From an uncultured Actinomycetes bacterium (GTDB lineage Bacteria; Actinomycetota; UBA4738; HRBIN12): 64,000 bases of DNA. Position numbers and translations under genes: made by a program. The stretch lies in NCBI GenBank assembly GCA_964640085.1, contig CAZXFA010000001.1:67586-131585 (forward strand). The letters run 5' to 3'. Below the pieces are notes generated by a model. It was not told the origin of the DNA. It worked only from the letters and a program-made list of their open reading frames with translations, and ran no database searches. Shown in pieces: positions 9,799 to 55,700 of this stretch (position 1 is the first letter of the stretch; every line of letters begins with the position of its first letter).

Positions 9799-9930
9799 CA
9801 AGCACCTCTTCGAGTGTGAGGCTCGTTCAGCTCGACCTTCCCGCCGTCCGGATCCGGCACGGGGCCCCGGGCGGCCCGGGGCATGTCCTCGAGGTCGCTG
9901 CACACGCGCGTATCGGTCGGCTTCGCGTGG

Positions 9931-10695
9931 TCACGTGAGCCTCACCGGGAGCCCTCGCTGGACGAGGTACCGCTTCACGTCGGCGATCGTGAGCTGTCCG
10001 AAGTGGAACCGGGACGCGGCGAGGGCGGCGTCCGCTCCCCCCTCGGTGAGAGCCTCGGCGAAATGCTCGACGTGGCCCGCTCCGCCGCTCGCGACGACCG
10101 GAACCCCGACGGCTTGACCGACCGCCCGGAGGAGCTCGACGTCGTAGCCCTCCCCGGTCCCGTCCTGGTCCATCGACGTGAGCAAGACCTCGCCCGCGCC
10201 TCGGCGGGCCGTGGCCTCTGCCGCCCACCCCACGGCCTCCCGACCGGTCGGCGTCCGTCCGGCATCGACGAACACCTCCCACCCGCCGTCCCGGCGCTTG
10301 GCGTCGATCGCGATCACCATGCACTGGGTCCCGAACCGGTCGGCGCAGCGCTCGAGCAGCTCCGGGTCGCGGACGGCCGCGCTGTTGACCGCCACCTTGT
10401 CCGCGCCGGCCCGCAGCAACGTCCGGACGTCCTCCTGGCTCCGCACACCGCCGCCCACGGTGAGTGGGATGAACACCTGTTCGGCCGTCCCGGCGATCAC
10501 GTCGAGCGTGGCCTCCCGACCCTCGACGGTGGCGGCGATGTCGAGGAACACCAGCTCGTCCGCCCCCTCCGCGTCGTAGCGCGACGCGAGCTCGACCGGG
10601 TCCCCCGCGTCCACCAGGTCGACGAACCGGGTCCCCTTCACGACCCGCCCGGCGTCGACGTCCAGGCACGGGATCACCCGCTTGGCCAGCGTCAT
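9931..10695 (-). CDS. hisF: imidazole glycerol phosphate synthase, cyclase subunit
   Basis: [25 protein letters not shown]...; full-length HisF TIM-barrel signature. Confidence 0.95.
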
Positions 10696-15128: not shown

Positions 15129-16745
15129 TCAGCCGGGCCTTACGGCCCGACGCCGGGCCTCGGCTCGGCGCTCGGCCTCGAGGCGCTCGAGATCCACGTC
15201 GCTGACGTCGACGTGCGTCATCGCGCCGGCGATCGCGCGGTGTCCGGCGACCTCGGCGATCAGCCGGTGCATCTCGTGCGCCACGCGCCGGTACGTCGGA
15301 TGGCCCTGGGGGGAGCTCCGGAGCTCGATCAGGTGCATCGCCTCGCGCGCGTTCATCTGCATCACGAAGCGGATCCTGTAGGCCATCGAGACCGCGTACT
15401 GCGCGACTTCCTTGCTCGCGGCCGCGAACAGCGTCTCCCACGTCTGCGCCGAGTCCTCCATGATGCCGTGCCACGCGTCCTCGAACCCCGAGTCGACGAT
15501 CTCGGCCGGCGTCTCGTAACCGTGCATCGGCGACAGGCGCTGCCATTCGAGCGTGAGCGGGCGGTGGCGCTGGAGGTCGCGGAACGCCCCGTAGTCGCAG
15601 AGGACGTCGAACCGGTAGTCGGTGCGCTCGAACGCCCGACCAGGCTTGTGGCGCCGGTTGCTCCGGTCGCCGACGTACGCGCGGAGCACGTCCGTCCGCT
15701 CGCCGTGGCTCATCCCGCGGGCGAGCTCCCGGCACCGCGCGTCGGGCAGGTCCGTCGCCGCGTACAGGGCCGCCGCGACGACCTTCTCCTCCCCCTCGGG
15801 GTCGAAGTCGGTGAGCGTGACGAGCTCGGTCGGGCCGGGGGCGACGTCCTCCGTGTACCTCGCCGCCGCCCCGAGCGTGCGCTCGCGCGCGTCCTCCAGG
15901 TAGCGGGACCAGGCGATCCCTCGATCGGGGAGGTCCACGCGCCTGAGGAACGCCGGGATCACCTTGCGGAGCTCCGTGAGCATCAGGTCCGCGTACCCCC
16001 GCACCTCGGCCAGCGGATGCGCGCGCATCCGCAGGAGCATCTGCTCGTAGCTCTGCCCCGTCGCGTACACGCCGAGGTTCGAACGCGTGCCGGCCGGGAG
16101 CAGCACGCGCAGCGTGTCGCAGGTCTTGGCCGTGATCGTCGAGCGGTAGATGGTATCCGAGTCGTTCGGGTCCTTCGGGAAGCGCTGCCGGAACAGGTCG
16201 GCCACCGGCTCGAACATCCGGCCGTATGCCCGGAACATCTGGTCTGCGAAGGTCCCGTAGCGCTCGAGGGCCGGCGTGCCCTCGAGCTCGGGCGGGACCG
16301 TGAGGCGCCAGCGGCCGCCCGGCCGGTCGTCGTAGCGCATGTACCGGGTGGACTGCTCGAGGTAGGCCGCCAGCCGCCCCCATTCGATGGTCTTGGCGAG
16401 GAGCTGCGAGGCCTGCTCGCACGCGAGGTGGACCCCGCCGAGCTGGGCAACGGAGTCGTCGCCGTACTCGAAGAACACGTTGTCGTAGAGCTTCTCGGCG
16501 CGCTGCACGCCGACCTCGCTCGTCGCCCCCTCCGACTCCACGTCCTCGGCGAACTCGTCCAGGAAGAGCCGGCGGAGCGACTTGGTGGTCCGTGAGTACC
16601 GCGCGAACAGCGCCCCCTTGACGACCTCGGGCAGGTTCACCAAGGCGAACACGGGCCCGTCAAGGTTGGTGAAGTGGGGCGCGAGCCGGGCGCGCTCCTC
16701 GTCCGTGAAGTCCTCGTGGACGAACCAGAGGCCCGCGTCAGCCAT
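15129..16745 (-). CDS. flavin-dependent thymidylate synthase (ThyX/Thy1)-like protein, double-length (538 aa, apparently tandem ThyX domains)
   Basis: The C-terminal half carries the ThyX signatures QRHRPLTLEWQRLSP (RHR-x-S-like) and MQMNAREAMHLIELRSSPQGHPTYRRVAHEM (NAR...LR...H...E of ThyX). The N-terminal half is more diverged. The ATG 16745 overlaps the pknB stop by 8 nt. Confidence 0.5.
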   Translation of the reverse strand: MADAGLWFVHEDFTDEERARLAPHFTNLDGPVFALVNLPEVVKGALFARYSRTTKSLRRLFLDEFAEDVESEGATSEVGVQRAEKLYDNVFFEYGDDSVAQLGGVHLACEQASQLLAKTIEWGRLAAYLEQSTRYMRYDDRPGGRWRLTVPPELEGTPALERYGTFADQMFRAYGRMFEPVADLFRQRFPKDPNDSDTIYRSTITAKTCDTLRVLLPAGTRSNLGVYATGQSYEQMLLRMRAHPLAEVRGYADLMLTELRKVIPAFLRRVDLPDRGIAWSRYLEDARERTLGAAARYTEDVAPGPTELVTLTDFDPEGEEKVVAAALYAATDLPDARCRELARGMSHGERTDVLRAYVGDRSNRRHKPGRAFERTDYRFDVLCDYGAFRDLQRHRPLTLEWQRLSPMHGYETPAEIVDSGFEDAWHGIMEDSAQTWETLFAAASKEVAQYAVSMAYRIRFVMQMNAREAMHLIELRSSPQGHPTYRRVAHEMHRLIAEVAGHRAIAGAMTHVDVSDVDLERLEAERRAEARRRAVRPG

Positions 16746-23692: not shown

Positions 23693-23779
<87 letters not shown>

Positions 23780-23890: not shown

Positions 23891-25276
23891 CTAGTGGGCG
23901 GTGCCCGGCAGCACGGTGATCGTGCCCTCCATGCCCGCCTCCCGGTGTCCCGGGATCGAGCAGTAGAAGGTGTACGTGCCCGGGATGGCTTCGAACGTCC
24001 CCTCCACGGTCTCGTTCGCGCCCATCACCAGCTGGACATCGAGCTCATCGATCGTGAAGTCGTGCTCGAACGCGTCCTGGTTGGCGATCGCGAGCGTGAC
24101 CTCCCCCTCGGCGACCTCCAGGTCGCCGGGCGAGAACCCCGTGATCGTGGCATCGACCGACACCGGCCCCTCCTGCGCGCCGCCGTCGTCCGATCCGCCC
24201 TCGACCACCGCAGGGGTGGCGCCGTACCGGAGCACACCCGCGGTGAACGGATCACCGAACACCGGGTAGGTCGCCGGGGCGGCCTGCGCATCCGCCGCCA
24301 CCTGGAGCACGCCCACCGCGCCGAGCCCCGTGTACGCGAACGAATGCGTGACGAACGGGTACAGCCCCTCGTCGGGGATCCTGAGCTCGAACATCGTGCC
24401 TCCGCCCGGCGGGACGTTGTAGGTCTGGACTCCGTTCAGGGCGTTGGTCGGGTTCCCGTCCGCGTAGACGTGGTCGAACAGCGCGCCGATCACGTGGAAC
24501 GCGTTCGTGAGGGTCGGGCCCGCGTTCATCACCCAGATCCGGATCAGCTCGTTCGGGCGCGCCTGGAGGGGTGCGTCCAGGTACCGGTTCGCCATCCCGT
24601 CGAACACGACGTGCGTCGGATCGGCGGCCTCCATCTTGGCCACATCACCCGTGTACAGGGCGTCGGGTCCCGGCTCGTCGCTGGCGTAGAACTCGCTCGA
24701 CGTGAGCACGAACTCCCGGGCCGGCTCCAGGCCCTCGGGCTCGACGATGATCGCCCCGTACATGCCGTTCGCGATGTGATGCAGCACGGGGGGGACCCCG
24801 CAGTGGTACATGAACACGCCGGGGAACCTCGCGACCCAGTCGAACGTGAGCGTCTCGCCGGGGGCCACGGGCTGGTAGTTCACGTTCCACGGCGTCTGGG
24901 CCGCGTGGAAGTCGATCGAATGCGACAGGCCGAGACCCGACTCGTTCGTGAGGGTGAAGCGGACCGTGTCTCCGAGCTTCACCCGGATCACCGGACCCGG
25001 GGCCGTCCCGTTGAACGTCCACACCTGGTAGTCGACGCCATCGGCCAGGGTCTGGGTCGTCTCCCCGGCCACCAGATCGACCTCGACGATGTTCCCCGTC
25101 CCCTCGCCTTCCAGCCGGAAGGCCTCGGCGACGTCGGGAACCTCTGGGCTGGTGGTAGCTCCCTCGTCGCCACCCCGGGCGATCGGTCGAACCCAGGTCA
25201 GCCCCACGATCAGCAGCGCGACCTGGATCATCGCTCCCACCGCAAGCACCCTGCGCATCGTCCCCACCCTTTCCAT
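23891..25276 (-). CDS. nirK: copper-containing nitrite reductase with a C-terminal cupredoxin extension (three-domain NirK)
   Basis: N-terminal signal/TM segment. SHSIDFHAAQ and MYHCGVPPVLHHIANGMYGAIIVEP carry the type-1/type-2 Cu ligand pattern of NirK. The C-terminal ~100 aa (...YTFYCSIPGHREAGMEGTITV) is a plastocyanin/azurin-like Cys-His-Met domain. An alternative start lies at ATG 25258. Confidence 0.85.
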   Translation of the reverse strand: MERVGTMRRVLAVGAMIQVALLIVGLTWVRPIARGGDEGATTSPEVPDVAEAFRLEGEGTGNIVEVDLVAGETTQTLADGVDYQVWTFNGTAPGPVIRVKLGDTVRFTLTNESGLGLSHSIDFHAAQTPWNVNYQPVAPGETLTFDWVARFPGVFMYHCGVPPVLHHIANGMYGAIIVEPEGLEPAREFVLTSSEFYASDEPGPDALYTGDVAKMEAADPTHVVFDGMANRYLDAPLQARPNELIRIWVMNAGPTLTNAFHVIGALFDHVYADGNPTNALNGVQTYNVPPGGGTMFELRIPDEGLYPFVTHSFAYTGLGAVGVLQVAADAQAAPATYPVFGDPFTAGVLRYGATPAVVEGGSDDGGAQEGPVSVDATITGFSPGDLEVAEGEVTLAIANQDAFEHDFTIDELDVQLVMGANETVEGTFEAIPGTYTFYCSIPGHREAGMEGTITVLPGTAH

Positions 25277-26150: not shown

Positions 26151-26420
26151 ATGGCTGGATGGCAGGGCTTCCAGCAGTGCCCGGGCTGTGGCCTGGACCT
26201 GCTCACGGGTGAGGGGGTCCGGGGGTGCGCCTGGGGCGACTGCCCCTACCTCCCGGACGATCTGCGCATGACCTGTGACTACTGCATGTTCAACTTCCTC
26301 ACGATGGAGGGCAATCCTCCCTGCGACGCCCCGATGACCTGCGATCACGCGAAGGAGCCGCTGGCGCACGTGGAGAACCTGCGTCGGTGGGCGGCCGAGC
26401 AGGGTCGCGTAGTCCCCTAG
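26151..26420 (+). CDS. small Cys-rich protein (89 aa, 9 Cys; hypothetical metal/redox protein)
   Basis: ATG 26151, preceded by GAGGAGG at -14..-8. Product MAGWQGFQQCPGCGLDLLTGEGVRGCAWGDCPYLPDDLRMTCDYCMFNFLTMEGNPPCDAPMTCDH.... In the frame of track ORF 25986..26420. Same strand as nsrR, 97 nt downstream. Confidence 0.5.
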   Translation: MAGWQGFQQCPGCGLDLLTGEGVRGCAWGDCPYLPDDLRMTCDYCMFNFLTMEGNPPCDAPMTCDHAKEPLAHVENLRRWAAEQGRVVP

Positions 26421-26449: not shown

Positions 26450-27259
26450 TCAGCCCGCCTCGCTCGGATCCGATGGCTCCGACGCGCCTCCGAGGAGCCG
26501 CAGGTCGGGTAGCTCGAGCGGATCGCCCGGACGGGAGCTGGGAGCGACCTCCTGTCCGACGAGCAGGCGGAGGAGGTCCGGGAGATCCACCCGACGTCTC
26601 CCCGTGCCGTACCCGACGGCCTCCAGCCGCATCGTCGGCAGCTCCCCGAAGCCCTCGACGGTCGCGGCCAGGATCGCCGCGCCGGTCGCGGTGGTGAGCT
26701 CGGCGGCCACCCCGCGCGAGAACAGGGGGGCGCCGCGCAGGAGCTCCAGGACGGTCGGGGAGGGGATCGGCATCGCCCCGTGCTCGGTCCGCGCCAGCCC
26801 GAGACCCGTCGGCACCGCGGAGGAGAACACCCGGTCCACACCCAACGTCGTCAAGCCGATGGCGGTGCCGACGACCGCCACGACGGCGTCGACGCCGGCG
26901 GCCGCCGGGAAGGTCACGGCCTCCAGCTCGCGACGATGGACGCGGGCTTCCGCCTCCGCCAGGCGTCGGAAGATGCGGTGCGCTAGCAGCAGCGCGTCCT
27001 CGGGGAGGTCCCCCGCGTCCAGCAACGCCCGCACGCTCCGGTAGGTCCTGATCACGCCCACCGCCGAGGTGCGCACATCGACCAGGGTGGCGCGGATCCC
27101 CTGCTCCTCGACCCCGGTCACGTCGAGCTCGAACGGGCCGAGCGGGAGCGAGGACAGATGGGTCCGGATCGTGTCGGGGTCCGCGCCGACATCGATCAGG
27201 GCCGCGAGCGCGGTGTCGCCGGTGATGCCGGCGATGCAGTCGAAGTAGGCCACGCGCAT
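26450..27259 (-). CDS. LarC N-terminal-domain (DUF111/LarC1)-like protein, 269 aa, lacking the LarC2 C-terminal domain
   Basis: MRVAYFDCIAGITGDTALAALIDVGAD... matches the LarC/DUF111 N-terminal signature (M.ILY.DCFSGISGDM.LGAL.D.G). The protein ends in an acidic Pro-rich tail after ~270 aa. The track ORF 26450..27829 extends upstream but overlaps a better-supported plus-strand gene. Confidence 0.55.
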   Translation of the reverse strand: MRVAYFDCIAGITGDTALAALIDVGADPDTIRTHLSSLPLGPFELDVTGVEEQGIRATLVDVRTSAVGVIRTYRSVRALLDAGDLPEDALLLAHRIFRRLAEAEARVHRRELEAVTFPAAAGVDAVVAVVGTAIGLTTLGVDRVFSSAVPTGLGLARTEHGAMPIPSPTVLELLRGAPLFSRGVAAELTTATGAAILAATVEGFGELPTMRLEAVGYGTGRRRVDLPDLLRLLVGQEVAPSSRPGDPLELPDLRLLGGASEPSDPSEAG

Positions 27260-27373
27260 CCGGCAGGCCTCACCCGCGGTTCGTTCGACCGCGCGGTGCT
27301 CGATCGTATATATACTTCCGCCCTCTCGGGAAGCTGCCGGCCGGCGACCCTCGAATCGACGCCTGGGGACCGG
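27260..27373. promoter_or_regulatory. divergent intergenic region with a TATATATA element (27306..27313)
   Basis: 114-nt spacer between the divergent LarC1-like and DUF4446-like starts. It contains the only (TA)4 run in the vicinity (GATCGTATATATACTTCC), plausibly a -10-like element. Confidence 0.3.
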
Positions 27374-27868
27374 ATGACCTTCTCCATCGAAGCGCTCAGC
27401 CTGCTGGTCCTCGCCGCGCTCGGCCTCGGCGCCCTCGCGCTGATCCTGTCGGCGCTCTCGCAGGGACGACGTCGCAGCGAGCAGCGCGGACCGATCCAGA
27501 TGGACGACGTGCTCCGCGGCGTCCTGGAGGGACACGCCCGACAGATCCAGCGGCTGGAGTCGGCTGTGAGGTCGCTGAACTCGACCGCGCGCCGACAGGA
27601 GGCGCTGATCCACGGCGCGGTGCGTCGCGTCGGGTTGGTCCGCTACGACGCGTTCGAGGACGTAGGAGGACGCCTCTCCTTCTCCTGCGCCCTGCTCGAC
27701 GACCACGGGAGCGGGGTCGTGCTGACCTCGATCAATGGACGGCAGGACACGCGCGTGTACGCGAAACCGATCGGCGAGGGGAAGAGCCGCTACAACCTCT
27801 CGGTCGAGGAGGAGGAAGCGATCCGGCAAGCGCTCGCGGGACCCCGGGAGGCGGTGACCGCCACGTGA
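27374..27868 (+). CDS. DUF4446-like membrane-anchored protein (hypothetical)
   Basis: ATG 27374, in the frame of track ORF 27158..27868. N-terminal TM helix (LSLLVLAALGLGALALILSAL), then a ~120-aa conserved-looking domain (...IHGAVRRVGLVRYDAFEDVGGRLSFSCALLDDHGSGVVLTSINGRQDTRVYAKPI...). Confidence 0.5.
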   Translation: MTFSIEALSLLVLAALGLGALALILSALSQGRRRSEQRGPIQMDDVLRGVLEGHARQIQRLESAVRSLNSTARRQEALIHGAVRRVGLVRYDAFEDVGGRLSFSCALLDDHGSGVVLTSINGRQDTRVYAKPIGEGKSRYNLSVEEEEAIRQALAGPREAVTAT

Positions 27869-27930
27869 TCTGGCGACGGGAGGACCCGGATGCGCCCGGT
27901 GAGGGGCGCCAGGAGACGAGGGGGCGACGG

Positions 27931-28335
27931 ATGGCAGAGCAGAGCGGTGAGGTCACCATCGTCGGACAGGGAGCCAAGCTCGAGGGGACGGTGGTCTCGG
28001 CCGGCTCCCTCCGGATCGACGGCCAGGTGAAGGGACAGATCAACGCCGACGGCGACGTGATGCTCTCCCCGCAGAGCCAGGTCGAGGCCGACATCCGCGC
28101 GCAGAACGTCTCGGTGGCCGGGAGGTTCAACGGCTCGATCGTCGTCAAGGGGCGCGCCGAGATCGCCCGCGGGGGCCGCGTCGACGGCAACATCACGTCG
28201 AAGACGCTGGTCGTCGAGGAGGGCGCAGTCTTCCAGGGTCAGAGCATCATGGACCAGCAGAAGGCCCAGGCCCCCACGCCTCAGGCCGCCCAGGGCAAGG
28301 GCGAGGCGGCTCAGGCGCAGCAGGCCAAGGTCTAG
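27931..28335 (+). CDS. bactofilin family cytoskeletal protein
   Basis: MAEQSGEVTIVGQGAKLEGTVVSAGSLRIDGQVKGQINADGDVMLSPQSQVEADIRAQNVSVAGRFNGSIVVKGRAEIARGGRVDGNITSKTLVVEEGAVFQGQ shows the repetitive beta-helical bactofilin (DUF583) pattern. AGGAG lies 12-16 nt upstream of ATG 27931. Gln/Ala-rich C-terminal tail. Confidence 0.8.
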   Translation: MAEQSGEVTIVGQGAKLEGTVVSAGSLRIDGQVKGQINADGDVMLSPQSQVEADIRAQNVSVAGRFNGSIVVKGRAEIARGGRVDGNITSKTLVVEEGAVFQGQSIMDQQKAQAPTPQAAQGKGEAAQAQQAKV

Positions 28336-28338
28336 CCC

Positions 28339-29610
28339 GTGCTCGACGTCAGGGCGATCCGGGAGGATCCCGAGCCGTTCCGTCGCGGCCTGGCCCGGCG
28401 CGGCCTGGCCGACGCGGTCGACGAGATCCTGCGGCTGGACGAACGCCACCGCTCACTGACCGCGCGGGTCGAGGAGCGCCGCGCACAGCAGAACCGCGTC
28501 TCCAAGGAGATCGGTGGCGAGCAGGGCGACCGGAAGCAGGAGCTGATCGCCGAGGCGAGCAGGGTCTCCGCTGACCTGAAGGAGCTCGAGCCGGAGCTCG
28601 ACGAGGCCGAGCGGGAGCTGAACGGGCTGTTGGCCCGGACCCCGAACGTGCCGCACGACTCAGCGCCGGCCGGGTTCACCGACGAGGACGCGGTGGAGGT
28701 GCGCCGGCACGGGGAGCCGTCGACCTTCGACTTCGAGCCGCGGGACCATGTCGCCCTGGGCGAGCTCCTCGGCGTGCTCGACACCGAACGGGCGGCGCGC
28801 GCGAGCGGATCGCGGTTCGTGTACCTACTGGGGGACATCGTGCACGTCCAGTTCGCCTTGGTCCGCCACGCGCTCGAGATCCTGGCATCCAGGGGCTTCA
28901 CGCCGGTGATCCCGCCGGTGCTCGTGCGCGAGGAGGCGATGTACGGAACCGGGTTCCTCCCGACGGACGAGCCCAACCTCTACGTGACGACCGAGGATCA
29001 GCTCTACCTGGTGGGGACCTCCGAGGTCCCGCTGGCCTCGTTCCACATGGGCGAGATCGTGGAGGAGGCCGCGCTCCCGTTGCGCTACGCGGGGTACTCC
29101 ACGTGCTTCCGGCGCGAGGCCGGCACCTACGGCAAGGACATGGGCGGGATGTTCCGCGTGCACCAGTTCGACAAGGTGGAGATGTTCAGCTTCACGCGAC
29201 CCGAGGACTCGTGGGCGGAGCAAGAGTTGATGGTCTCCGTCGAGGAGGAGATCGTGCAGCGCCTGGACCTGCCCTACCGGGTGGTGAACATCGCCGCGGG
29301 CGAACTGGGCGGCGCGGCCGCGAAGAAGTACGACCTGGAGGTCTGGCTCCCCGGTCAAGGGCGCTACCGCGAGCTCACGTCCTGCTCGAACTGCACCGAC
29401 TACCAGGCTCGGCGCCTCCAGACGCGGGTCCGGCGATCCGACGGGACGATAGAGGCACTCCACACCCTCAACGGGACCGCGACGGCGGTCGGCCGCACCC
29501 TGATCGCTCTCATCGAGAACGGCCAGCGTGCGGACGGCTCGGTGGCGCTCCCGGCGGTGCTCCATCCATACCTGCCGGAGGCGCTCCGCGAGCTGCGCCC
29601 GCCGGGCTGA
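28339..29610 (+). CDS. serS: seryl-tRNA synthetase
   Basis: N-terminal coiled-coil arm, class II motifs (...FRREAGTYGKDMGGMFRVHQFDKVEMF..., ...GELGGAAAKKYDLEVWLPGQGRYRELTSCSNCTDYQARRL...). GTG start. 423 aa. Confidence 0.95.
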   Translation: MLDVRAIREDPEPFRRGLARRGLADAVDEILRLDERHRSLTARVEERRAQQNRVSKEIGGEQGDRKQELIAEASRVSADLKELEPELDEAERELNGLLARTPNVPHDSAPAGFTDEDAVEVRRHGEPSTFDFEPRDHVALGELLGVLDTERAARASGSRFVYLLGDIVHVQFALVRHALEILASRGFTPVIPPVLVREEAMYGTGFLPTDEPNLYVTTEDQLYLVGTSEVPLASFHMGEIVEEAALPLRYAGYSTCFRREAGTYGKDMGGMFRVHQFDKVEMFSFTRPEDSWAEQELMVSVEEEIVQRLDLPYRVVNIAAGELGGAAAKKYDLEVWLPGQGRYRELTSCSNCTDYQARRLQTRVRRSDGTIEALHTLNGTATAVGRTLIALIENGQRADGSVALPAVLHPYLPEALRELRPPG

Positions 29611-31559: not shown

Positions 31560-31649
31560 GGGAGGATGGCCGAGCGGACGAAGGCGGCGGTCTTGAAAAC
31601 CGCTAGTCCCGCAAGGGGCTCCTGGGTTCGAATCCCAGTCCTCCCGCCA
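31560..31649 (+). tRNA. tRNA-Ser (anticodon TGA), class II, CCA encoded
   Basis: Acceptor GGGAGGA/TCCTCCC (perfect 7 bp), D-arm GCCGAGCGG, anticodon stem GCGGT/ACCGC with loop CTTGAAA, long variable arm, T-arm CTGGG-TTCGAAT-CCCAG, discriminator G, then CCA. Confidence 0.85.
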
Positions 31650-38368: not shown

Positions 38369-38983
38369 TCAGCTGCCGTGGGCCGAGTTGGCGCTCGCGT
38401 GCGCGGGCCCGTTGGCGTTGCCGTTACCCTGCGCTCCGGCCTGCCCGGGCGCCGCGTGCGAGTGTGGGCCACCTGGCTGCCCGTTCCCGTTGCCCGGCTT
38501 GCCGTCCGGCCACTTCGCCTCGAACTTCTCCCGCAGCCACAGCTCGTGCTGGTGGTGGCGGAGCCAGTTCTGGCCGAGGTGGGCGAGCGCGTTCCGCAGC
38601 CCGCGGTTCGCGTGATCCTCGCAGTTCGTGAGCACGGAGCGGATCCCCTGGACGCCGTGGCTCGTCTGGCCTCCGTCCAGCGCCTCGATCAGCGTGCCGA
38701 ACGCGTCCACGATGACCACGTCTGCCAGGTCCGCGTCGCCGAGCAGGTCGGCGCCGCACCTCTTGGCGAAGGCATCGAAGTACTGCCCGATGTCCGCCCC
38801 GTCCTCCGGATCGACCGTCTGCGGGACGAGCGGGTCGGTCGCCCCGGTGAGGGCCTCCTCCGCGCCCCATGGCGGCCCGGAGCTGGTGCGGGCGATAGCG
38901 GTGCCTACGCCGGCAAGCAGGAGTGCCGAGGCCGCCACCGCCACGACCCTACGACCGCGGTGGCGGGTGTGGGTCTCGCTCAT
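38369..38983 (-). CDS. secreted hypothetical protein with a Gly/Asn/Ala-rich C-terminal tail (204 aa)
   Basis: ATG 38983 (an internal Met of track ORF 38369..39619). Signal-peptide-like MSETHTRHRGRRVVAVAASALLLAGVGTAIA, mature domain with NCEDHANRG ... HHQHELWLREKF, and tail GNGNGQPGGPHSHAAPGQAGAQGNGNANGPAHASANSAHGS. The upstream 212 aa of the track ORF is low-complexity, off-frame-looking sequence. Confidence 0.5.
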   Translation of the reverse strand: MSETHTRHRGRRVVAVAASALLLAGVGTAIARTSSGPPWGAEEALTGATDPLVPQTVDPEDGADIGQYFDAFAKRCGADLLGDADLADVVIVDAFGTLIEALDGGQTSHGVQGIRSVLTNCEDHANRGLRNALAHLGQNWLRHHQHELWLREKFEAKWPDGKPGNGNGQPGGPHSHAAPGQAGAQGNGNANGPAHASANSAHGS

Positions 38984-39191
38984 GACGGCAAGTATGCTCG
39001 GCCGCGCCCGGTGGCGGAAGGACCCGTCCGGCCGTTTCGCCCGCTCTGGGCGGGGGACCGACCTTCGGCCGGGAAGGGTCCCTTGGGTGGTGCCACCCGG
39101 GGGAGGCGGGTCTCGGCCGTGCGGTTGCCTGACCGGGCAACCCGGCTTCGATGATGAGAGGGGCTCGGACAGGGCCCGTATCCTGGGCCTC

Positions 39192-40214
39192 GTGACCGAC
39201 CGCTTCCTGCGCGCGCTCCGGATCGAGCCCGTGGACCGCACCCCTGTCTGGTTCATGCGCCAGGCCGGGAGGTACCTGCCCGAGTACCGGGACCTGCGCG
39301 GCGAGCGTGACATCCTCGAGACCTGCCGCCACGCCGACCTCGCGGTCGAGATCTCGCTCCAGCCGCTCCGGAGGATGCCGCTCGACGCCGCGATCGTGTT
39401 CAGCGACATCATGGTGCCCCTGGCGGCGATCGGGATCCCCGTGCGGGTCGCGCCGGGGACCGGTCCGCTCGTGGACGCGCCGATCCTCGGACCGGCCGAC
39501 CTCGCCCGTCTCCGCCCGCTCGAGCCCGAGGCGGACGAGCCGGCGCTGCTCGAAACGATCCGTCTCCTGCGCAAGGAAGTCGATGTGCCGGTGATCGGAT
39601 TCTCGGGGGCCCCGTTCACGCTGGCGAGCTATCTCGTCGAGGGCGGCCCCTCCCGACATCACACGAGGACGAAGGGGCTGATGCACGGGCGACCGGAGGT
39701 ATGGGCCGGCCTGATGGAGGCGCTCGGGCAGATCGCTGTCGCCCACGCTCGCGCACAGATCGCGGCGGGGGCCCAGGCCGTACAGTTCTTCGACTCGTGG
39801 GTCGGAGCGCTCGACCCGGACGACTACGAGCGACACGTGCTGCCCTGGATGGCTCAGCTCCTGAACGGGATCGAGGCGCCGACGATTCACTTCGGCGTGG
39901 GGACCGGGGAGCTCCTTCCCCTGATGCGCCGGGCGGGCGGCGACGCGATCGGCGTGGATCACCGCGTGCCGCTGGACGCCGCGTGGGAGCGGGTCGGAGC
40001 CGACCGCGCGATCCAGGGCAACCTCGACCCGGCGGTGTGTACCGCGCCGTGGGACGCGGTGGAACGTAAGGCGGTTCGCGTGCTCGACCGCGCCGCCATG
40101 CGGGACGGGCATGTGTTCAACCTCGGCCACGGCGTCCCGCCCGACACCCCGGTGGGCAACCTGCAGCGCCTCGTAGTGCTGGTCCACGAGCGGACCGAGC
40201 GGACCCGGCCGTGA
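39192..40214 (+). CDS. hemE: uroporphyrinogen decarboxylase
   Basis: VTDRFLRALRIEPVDRTPVWFMRQAGRYLPEY... (UroD N-terminal signature) from GTG 39192, in the frame of track ORF 38628..40214. Confidence 0.9.
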   Translation: MTDRFLRALRIEPVDRTPVWFMRQAGRYLPEYRDLRGERDILETCRHADLAVEISLQPLRRMPLDAAIVFSDIMVPLAAIGIPVRVAPGTGPLVDAPILGPADLARLRPLEPEADEPALLETIRLLRKEVDVPVIGFSGAPFTLASYLVEGGPSRHHTRTKGLMHGRPEVWAGLMEALGQIAVAHARAQIAAGAQAVQFFDSWVGALDPDDYERHVLPWMAQLLNGIEAPTIHFGVGTGELLPLMRRAGGDAIGVDHRVPLDAAWERVGADRAIQGNLDPAVCTAPWDAVERKAVRVLDRAAMRDGHVFNLGHGVPPDTPVGNLQRLVVLVHERTERTRP

Positions 40215-54053: not shown

Positions 54054-54143
54054 GGAGACGTGGCTGAGTGGCCGAAAGCAGCCGCCTGCTAAGCGGTTAG
54101 GGGGTGTTGAGCTCCCTCGCGCGTTCGAATCGCGCCGTCTCCG
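54054..54143 (+). tRNA. tRNA-Ser (anticodon GCT), class II
   Basis: Acceptor GGAGACG/CGTCTCC (perfect), anticodon stem GCCGC/GCGGT with loop CTGCTAA, long variable arm, T-arm GCGCG-TTCGAAT-CGCGC, discriminator G; CCA not encoded. Confidence 0.85.
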
Positions 54144-55627: not shown

Positions 55628-55700
55628 GCGCCGGTAGCTCAATGGATAGAGCATCTGACTACGGATCAGAAGGTTGGGGGTTCGACTCCCTCCCGGCGCG
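55628..55700 (+). tRNA. tRNA-Arg (anticodon ACG)
   Basis: Acceptor GCGCCGG/CCGGCGC (perfect), D-arm AGCTCAATGGATAGAGC, anticodon stem TCTGA/TCAGA with loop CTACGGA, T-arm GGGGG-TTCGACT-CCCTC, discriminator G. Confidence 0.85.

Follow-up and report, generated by a model that had tools for sequence, protein, structure and literature searches.

A stand-alone LarC1 gene that probably outlived the in-place loss of its nickel-pincer operon in uncultured Actinomycetota

How does a gene for only the N-terminal half of LarC come to stand by itself on a chromosome, and what can be said of the role of its product? The question is raised by a 64,000-nucleotide (64-kb) stretch of DNA, referred to as the window, in which a single short open reading frame matches the LarC1 domain. 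An earlier note on this DNA had offered two answers, a decaying gene or a stand-alone LarC1 with a different role. The gene and its two parts are as follows.

26450..27259, minus strand: LarC1-only gene, class S1 short form (open reading frame and translation; 269 codons plus stop)
26549..27259, minus strand: LarC1 domain, residues 1-237 (residue mapping to the mutagenesis of M. thermoacetica LarC; AlphaFold)
26453..26548, minus strand: C-terminal tail, residues 238-269 (alignment of short and long forms; predicted disordered)

The gene is monocistronic. It runs on the minus strand from an ATG at 27259 to a stop codon at 26450-26452 and encodes 269 residues with the N-terminus MRVAYFDCIAGITGD; the range 26450-27373 of the earlier note comprises this coding sequence and the 114-nt spacer. 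Residues 4-237 match profile positions 1-237 of the 375 in the Pfam family PF01969 (Ni_insertion, E = 6e-69), and the NCBIfam model TIGR00299.2 (nickel_LarC1) gives 165.8 bits, its cut-off being 90. Alignment to the sole solved relative, full-length M. thermoacetica LarC (LarCMt, PDB 12bi), is gap-free and confined to residues 1-236 (E = 7.5e-47), and LarCMt residue numbers therefore apply directly to the window protein. The profile alignment, which had been proposed as a check, places the domain boundary at residue 237 and bears out the earlier description of a 269-aa LarC1-like product that has an acidic, proline-rich tail and no LarC2. That tail (238-269) comprises 32 residues and finishes in AG. 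AlphaFold models residues 1-237 with confidence (mean pLDDT 84 and pTM 0.82 for the protein) and predicts disorder for 245-269 (pLDDT < 50). The model contains seven helices plus β-strands, a predicted secondary-structure content consistent with the mixed α/β architecture reported for LarC1, a previously uncharacterized fold (PMC13510736). A Foldseek search of the model against a PDB library extending to April 2026, without the LarC cryo-EM entries, returned no match, which fits the published description of LarC1 as a new fold. The window protein is homologous to the LarC1 half of LarC, has neither LarC2 nor an intact catalytic set, and should not be classed as LarC.

The neighbours that bear on its history are listed below.

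26154..26420, plus strand: convergent Cys-rich 88-aa open reading frame, no Pfam match, in an Rrf2/copper-oxidase block
27374..27868, plus strand: divergent DUF4446 gene (PF14584), a conserved synteny partner
27865..28335, plus strand: bactofilin gene (PF04519), a synteny marker
28339..29610, plus strand: seryl-tRNA synthetase (SerS) gene, a synteny marker (tblastn, 77% identity to the SerS of L004, a sister locus with full-length LarC)

As the earlier note had stated, no LarC2-encoding frame follows and the next gene converges: the 88-aa open reading frame at 26154-26420 (+) ends 29 nt from the LarC1 stop. The proposed search for LarC2 remnants, run as tblastn with 44 LarC2 domains against the window and the DNA downstream of every short homologue, gave no credible hit (best E 0.045, at scattered positions). 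The claim that larA, larB and larE are missing from the window holds as well, since tblastn of the 64-kb window for LarB found nothing and a Pfam scan of its 46 called open reading frames found no PF00731, PF09861 or LarE-type domain. The scanned frames comprise a histidine operon, ThyX, a PknB-PBP-FtsW-PP2C-FhaB-FhaA block, a copper oxidase and Rrf2, and further PAS and ABC proteins, Tad, haem biosynthesis and NAPRTase.

Beyond the window, LarB and LarC2 were not found across ~700 kb of short-form loci. None of the 120 best LarB matches, which reach only to ~65% identity, lies on a contig equal in length to a short-form contig (those compared include a 3.45-Mb chromosome of 3,450,992 nt and contigs of 2,770,170, 861,008 and 319,186 nt); large long-form control contigs are likewise missing from these matches, which makes the result weakly negative. 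Contigs of short-form length are also missing from the LarC2-domain matches listed, a comparison of limited power: with a 148-aa LarC2 query all matches listed measured at most 259 aa and full-length LarC was missing, so that the search appears biased towards query-like lengths and absence from such lists is to be read with care. A search of all locus flanks for larE through PP-loop (SGGxDS) frames found none in long or in short forms and is uninformative on larE. Two database proteins resembling a stand-alone LarC2 and lying on long contigs were examined and rejected as partners of short forms: each comes from another genome, where a full-length larC beside larB has been split by a frameshift. 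In these two long-read MAG contigs (L088:4562-6444 and L089:4530-6522) full-length larC lies in pieces, and in L088 SerS and DUF4446 are split too; the splits look like assembly indel errors rather than biology, and their pieces enter protein databases as 'stand-alone LarC2'.

Several other features of the window were noted. The convergent 88-aa frame (26154-26420) contains nine cysteines, has no Pfam match, begins MAGWQGFQQCPGCG and fills the place where LarC2 would be expected; counterparts of 89-93 aa lie beside Rrf2 in L001, L086 and L087. A NirK-like copper oxidase with a C-terminal cupredoxin domain (23891-25276) lies near it, as it does in L001, and the small protein, which belongs with this Rrf2/copper-oxidase unit rather than with lar, is possibly a metal-binding partner of it. 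The ThyX frame (15129-16745, minus strand) encodes 538 aa with two Thy1-matching stretches, the better at 311-500, and has similarly long counterparts (535-537 aa) in L004 and L087, as though ThyX had been duplicated or extended. Haem biosynthesis genes (hemE, hemH, an oxidase, hemL, hemB and hemA) form a cluster at 38-52 kb, where the uroporphyrinogen decarboxylase match (38628-40214, plus strand) covers only residues 190-521 of a 528-aa frame, reflecting either a miscalled start or an N-terminal extension. Four tRNA genes pass the Rfam gathering threshold on the plus strand (23693-23777, 31560-31646, 54054-54143 and 55628-55700), and no other Rfam RNA family was found in the window.

The surroundings of the gene proved informative about its origin. 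LarC is divergent from DUF4446-bactofilin-SerS (the SerS of homologous loci carrying PF02403/PF00587) in every one of the 85 fetched loci that extend far enough, and DUF4446 adjoins either LarC or LarB in each of them. LarB (PF00731, ~243-262 aa) lies between DUF4446 and LarC in 42 of 44 loci with full-length LarC, and neither LarB nor LarC2 is present in the 31 S1, 4 S2 and 2 aberrant loci (defined below) or in the window. Given this shared slot and synteny, the window gene is a positional orthologue of the full-length larC in the sister larB-larC operon. The divergent 114-nt spacer with TATATATA, the DUF4446 gene (27374-27868) and the bactofilin gene (27865-28335) are as the earlier note described them; its view that this is an odd neighbourhood for a nickel-pincer gene did not survive, the DUF4446-bactofilin-SerS side being the ancestral home of the clade's larB-larC operon. 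Judged by this synteny, the window's neighbours are inherited rather than new partners. At two further loci, L064 (~9834-10000) and L033 (~2082-2160), larB was lost independently while LarC is full length with its catalytic set intact. In L064 the LarB start survives and runs into an early TAG, in L033 larB is cleanly deleted, and both loci may represent early steps of the same kind of decay.

How widespread is the short form? Among the best 120 homologue clusters (at 90% identity), 100 measure 249-308 aa, mostly 265-271, and the other 20 measure 395-396 aa at 62-69% identity; the short clusters, at least 100 in number, come from many metagenomes, and public records call some of them 'nickel chelatase' or 'nickel pincer cofactor biosynthesis protein LarC'. 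In species-representative genomes, a scan gave 80 loci, all but one or two of them titled as uncultured Actinomycetota/Actinomycetes or unclassified-bacterium MAGs. After duplicate removal, the loci fall into the following groups.

Long forms: 44 loci, the complete ones 394-412 aa, full-length LarC
S1 short forms: 31 loci, 266-274 aa, the window's group
S2 short forms: 4 loci, 250-257 aa, with a shorter tail
Aberrant: 2 loci, of 297 aa (L040) and 996 aa (L031)
Cut by a contig end: 1 locus (L039)

The aberrant loci are L040:10001-10894, whose frameshift-like tail looks out-of-frame, and L031:8145-11135, a read-through. The open reading frame is intact, at nearly constant length, in 35 of 37 short-form species loci, and assemblies made independently from short and from long reads show the same short architecture. 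The window shares the S1 traits of a 266-274-aa length, a tail of the form EEPAsS.PS.PG.PeLrLV...AG, a relic of the larB start codon and a divergent DUF4446. Its nearest relatives are L086 (85% identity) and L087 (78%), which have the synteny and TFPAAAGVDAVVAVVG in common with it. A neighbour-joining tree built on the LarC1 domain places the short forms as one clade within the long forms, beside L004 and L027, with S1 (window included) recovered in 50 of 50 bootstraps and S1+S2 in 32 of 50. A single-gene SerS tree, used as a species-tree proxy, is poorly resolved and does not unite the short-form genomes in one clade, so that at the species level truncation may have happened once or several times; the shared junction and tail offer better evidence than the species-level tree for a common descent of S1, to judge by the alignments. 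Across the family, about two in three of the 150 best LarC representatives at 50% identity measure at least 360 aa, mostly ~390-410, some of the short ones possibly being cut by contig ends, and the short clade collapses at this level to roughly one representative. The earlier note had named, as grounds for abandoning its view, a common and complete DUF111 subfamily of this length, or a LarC2 fused in close relatives. Taken literally, proteins of this length are indeed common, making up 100 of the best 120 clusters, and in close relatives the locus does hold a LarC with LarC2 fused to it, but the short class, rather than being a complete subfamily, arose by truncation and has ceased to conserve the catalytic residues.

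The 5' leader and the tail both retain traces of what was removed. We aligned the spacers of S1, S2 and long-form loci by anchoring them on a −10-like box, which in the window is the TATATATA of the earlier note.

27275..27292, minus strand: larB relic in the 5' leader, its first ~6 codons (GCG GTC GAA CGA ACC GCG), with the former GTG at 27290-27292
27303..27315, minus strand: −10-like box, GTATATATACGAT in the window, consensus GTATACAAT in 70+ related loci

In long forms, the position of the relic, ~10 nt past the box, holds GTG GAC GAA CG., the LarB start (V D E R). S1 loci read GCG GTC GAA CGA ACC GCG at the same position, with the GTG still present in two of them, followed by 20-30 nt and then the LarC ATG; in S2 the relic is missing and the ATG directly follows the box. 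The box belongs to a longer conserved element (window 27303-27340, minus strand; spacers of L001-L087), (C)T(G/C)ACCTG..N~20..AGTATACAATC, common to more than 70 loci. The position of the larB GTG ~10 nt after TACAAT in long forms suggests a near-leaderless larB mRNA. A sigma-70/terminator scan and an Rfam search of the spacer gave nothing significant and did not call the −10-like box, whose promoter function we infer solely from its conservation. At the other end of the gene, the S1 tail has the consensus G.EEPAsSlPSvPG.PeLrLVpEp..dpgd-AG, with AG at the end in 28 of 31, and aligns to the linker and first LarC2 strand of the long forms, LRLV (LRLL in the window) against LVLET, stopping about a dozen residues later. 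On this alignment the window's tail, the most diverged of the S1 set, is the former LarC1-LarC2 linker with a remnant of the first LarC2 β-strand.

We then considered what the truncated protein has kept of the LarC active site. According to a 2026 cryo-EM and mutagenesis study of LarCMt, activity is nearly abolished by alanine at H108, H118 or H160 and markedly reduced in the variants D15A, R71A, E104A, E119A, D124A, D128A and E187A, LarC2 provides the CTP site for CMP-activation of the substrate, and deleting, shortening or replacing the LarC1-LarC2 linker leaves less than 10% of activity (PMC13510736). The window protein retains D7, C8, D15, R71, E104, H108, D124, H160, E187 and R231 and carries H118P, E119A, D128A and Y180F, so that seven of the ten residues required in LarCMt are kept and P118, A119 and A128 differ. 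At the species level the ten-residue set is fully intact in 42 of 44 long forms and in none of the 31 S1 loci; among protein clusters the corresponding figures are 19 of 20 long and 2 of 100 short. Substitutions at the catalytic positions of S1 are many and independent: E104 is replaced by D, G or A, H108 by Q or S, H118 by P or T, E119 by D, A, Q or a gap, D124 by E or G, and D128 by A, V, G, H or T. The positions invariant in long forms and variable in S1 cluster in the H108...FHEVGAxDxIxD segment, while D7, C8, R71, H160, E187 and R231 are invariant in S1 and H118 is kept in 29 of 31. Such a pattern is a signature of catalytic constraint lost in a protein whose fold would still be needed. 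The conservative changes (E to D, H to Q) and the retention of H118, H160, R71 and E187 in relatives are consistent with some members that might keep metal or ligand chemistry. The window protein itself, despite its annotation as LarC, probably no longer makes the nickel-pincer cofactor.

Measures of selection point to a gene under constraint. Median pairwise dN/dS over LarC1 codons (NG86, a crude estimate in a genome of 71.6% GC) was 0.21 for S1, 0.21 for S2 and 0.27 for long forms, and 0.33 for the S1 tail. In the trio of the window, L086 and L087, dS was 0.5-0.6 and dN/dS 0.15-0.23; because all three share TFPAAAGVDAVVAVVG, this low ratio implies that purifying selection persisted after H118P, E119A and D128A. 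By these estimates the short LarC1 gene is not decaying, and the fold, the FDCxxGxxGD motif, R71, H160, E187, R231 and the AG-ending disordered tail are, to judge from codon and residue conservation, still under purifying selection. The decay half of the earlier note's alternative does not agree with these values (dN/dS 0.15-0.27, frame intact in 35 of 37), and its other half, a stand-alone LarC1 with a different role, fits best.

We consider it fairly likely that the window gene is a larC positional orthologue that outlived the in-situ loss of its nickel-pincer operon and now encodes a stand-alone LarC1 pseudoenzyme with a non-catalytic role. The truncation, the adjacent larB loss, the erosion of the catalytic set and the ongoing purifying selection on which this reading builds are evident from the comparisons above. 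The ancestral state, as in sister lineages, is SerS-bactofilin-DUF4446 divergent from larB-larC (full length), transcribed from the conserved box. In the short-form lineage, one of uncultured soil Actinomycetota, the body of larB was deleted, leaving its first ~6 codons within a ~45-nt leader, and LarC was cut just past the first LarC2 β-strand. Lacking the CTP-binding LarC2, the product cannot support CMP-activation of the substrate, and the nickel-insertion residues have lost their special conservation (H118, E119 and D128 here; E104, H108, E119, D124 and D128 in relatives); from the missing LarC2 and these eroded residues together we infer that cyclometallase activity is gone. The conserved half-pocket may instead bind a small ligand or metal, or the conserved tail may bind a partner protein. 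We give roughly even chances to the more specific proposal that the LarC1 fold would have an autonomous, selectable function outside nickel-pincer cofactor biosynthesis, using the surviving half-pocket (D7/C8 motif, R71, H160, E187) and the tail for ligand or partner binding.

Other explanations have to be weighed against this one. A pseudogene in decay, that is, a remnant of the lar operon that erasure has yet to reach, would agree with the deletion of larB and LarC2, the eroding catalytic residues and the two disrupted or aberrant loci (L040 and L031). Such a gene is hard to square, however, with 35 of 37 intact frames of near-constant length whose stop is conserved after ...AG, with a dN/dS of 0.21 that is not above that of full-length LarC (0.15-0.23 in the window's sub-lineage, at dS 0.5-0.6), or with at least 100 clusters at 90% identity from many metagenomes, and we regard it as improbable. 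Could the break instead be an assembly or annotation artefact, a full-length larC interrupted by a sequencing frameshift? Broken genes of this kind do occur in long-read MAGs of the clade (L088 and L089), but here no LarC2-coding DNA lies past the stop in any frame, a convergent gene begins its territory 29 nt away, and independent short- and long-read assemblies agree on the architecture, which makes an error of this kind extremely implausible.

Two further explanations would preserve a catalytic role. LarC might be split and still working, LarC1 and LarC2 acting in trans, with larB and larE at other sites in the genome and the cofactor still made; L. plantarum has LarC1 and LarC2 in separate reading frames (PMC13510736), and most S1 members keep H118, H160, R71 and E187. 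This arrangement nevertheless seems unlikely: neither LarC2 nor LarB appears in the window, in ~700 kb of short-form loci or, among the homologues listed, on contigs of short-form length, the 'stand-alone LarC2' matches examined are frameshift-split full-length genes of other genomes, LarCMt with an altered linker is less than 10% active (PMC13510736), and the full catalytic set is found in none of the 31 S1 members, with H118, E119 and D128 gone from the window protein. We likewise give little weight to a CTP-independent insertase, in which LarC1 alone would put nickel or another metal into a nucleotide-bearing substrate such as an adenine-dinucleotide pincer precursor. The conversion of the AMP-bearing analogue P2TAD by LarCLp (Vucko et al. 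2024, as cited in PMC13510736), the existence of a nickel-pincer adenine dinucleotide cofactor (Desguin 2025, as cited in PMC13524815) and the continued conservation of the pocket residues D15, R71, H160 and E187 speak for it, but E104, H108, H118, E119, D124 and D128, the residues proposed for the pyridinium ring and nickel, are those now variable, and no larB or larE lies nearby to supply a pincer precursor.

The favoured reading, a non-catalytic LarC1 left behind by its operon, can be set beside known systems. Like LarC of M. thermoacetica (12bi) and L. plantarum, the window protein has FDCxxGxxGD, R71, E104, H108, D124, H160, E187 and R231; unlike them, it lacks the CTP-binding, hexamer-forming LarC2 and an adjacent larB, carries H118P, E119A and D128A, and belongs to a clade that has lost conservation of the catalytic set. 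With the sister full-length LarC (L004/P0100, 396 aa, LarB upstream) it shares the chromosomal slot, the divergent neighbours, the upstream box and 67-72% identity over LarC1, whereas LarB, LarC2 and an invariant catalytic set (42 of 44) belong to the sister forms only. A natural LarC1-only polypeptide of similar size is known from L. plantarum, where residues 1-271 are the product made without the programmed frameshift (PMC13510736). That polypeptide, rich in histidine (21 His), is made alongside full-length LarC by a complete lar operon, whereas the window gene has no LarC2 coding sequence at all and its product is not notably His-rich. The closest general class is that of pseudoenzymes, dead homologues of enzymes that persist as binding or scaffolding proteins, in which a fold stays under purifying selection while catalytic residues drift, an assignment made here by sequence evolution only. 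We found no description of a stand-alone LarC1 family in the searchable literature.

LarC is used as an anchor for predicting producers of the nickel-pincer cofactor (PMC13524815), and short-form proteins named LarC or nickel chelatase would be false positives in such predictions. The locus presents a clean, datable case of operon decay in which one domain was retained and the start codon of a deleted gene left a relic, and the S1 clade constitutes a natural variant set at E104, H108, H118, E119 and D128. A natural LarC1-only protein under purifying selection suggests that the LarC1 fold can act without LarC2, which bears on the division of labour between the two domains.
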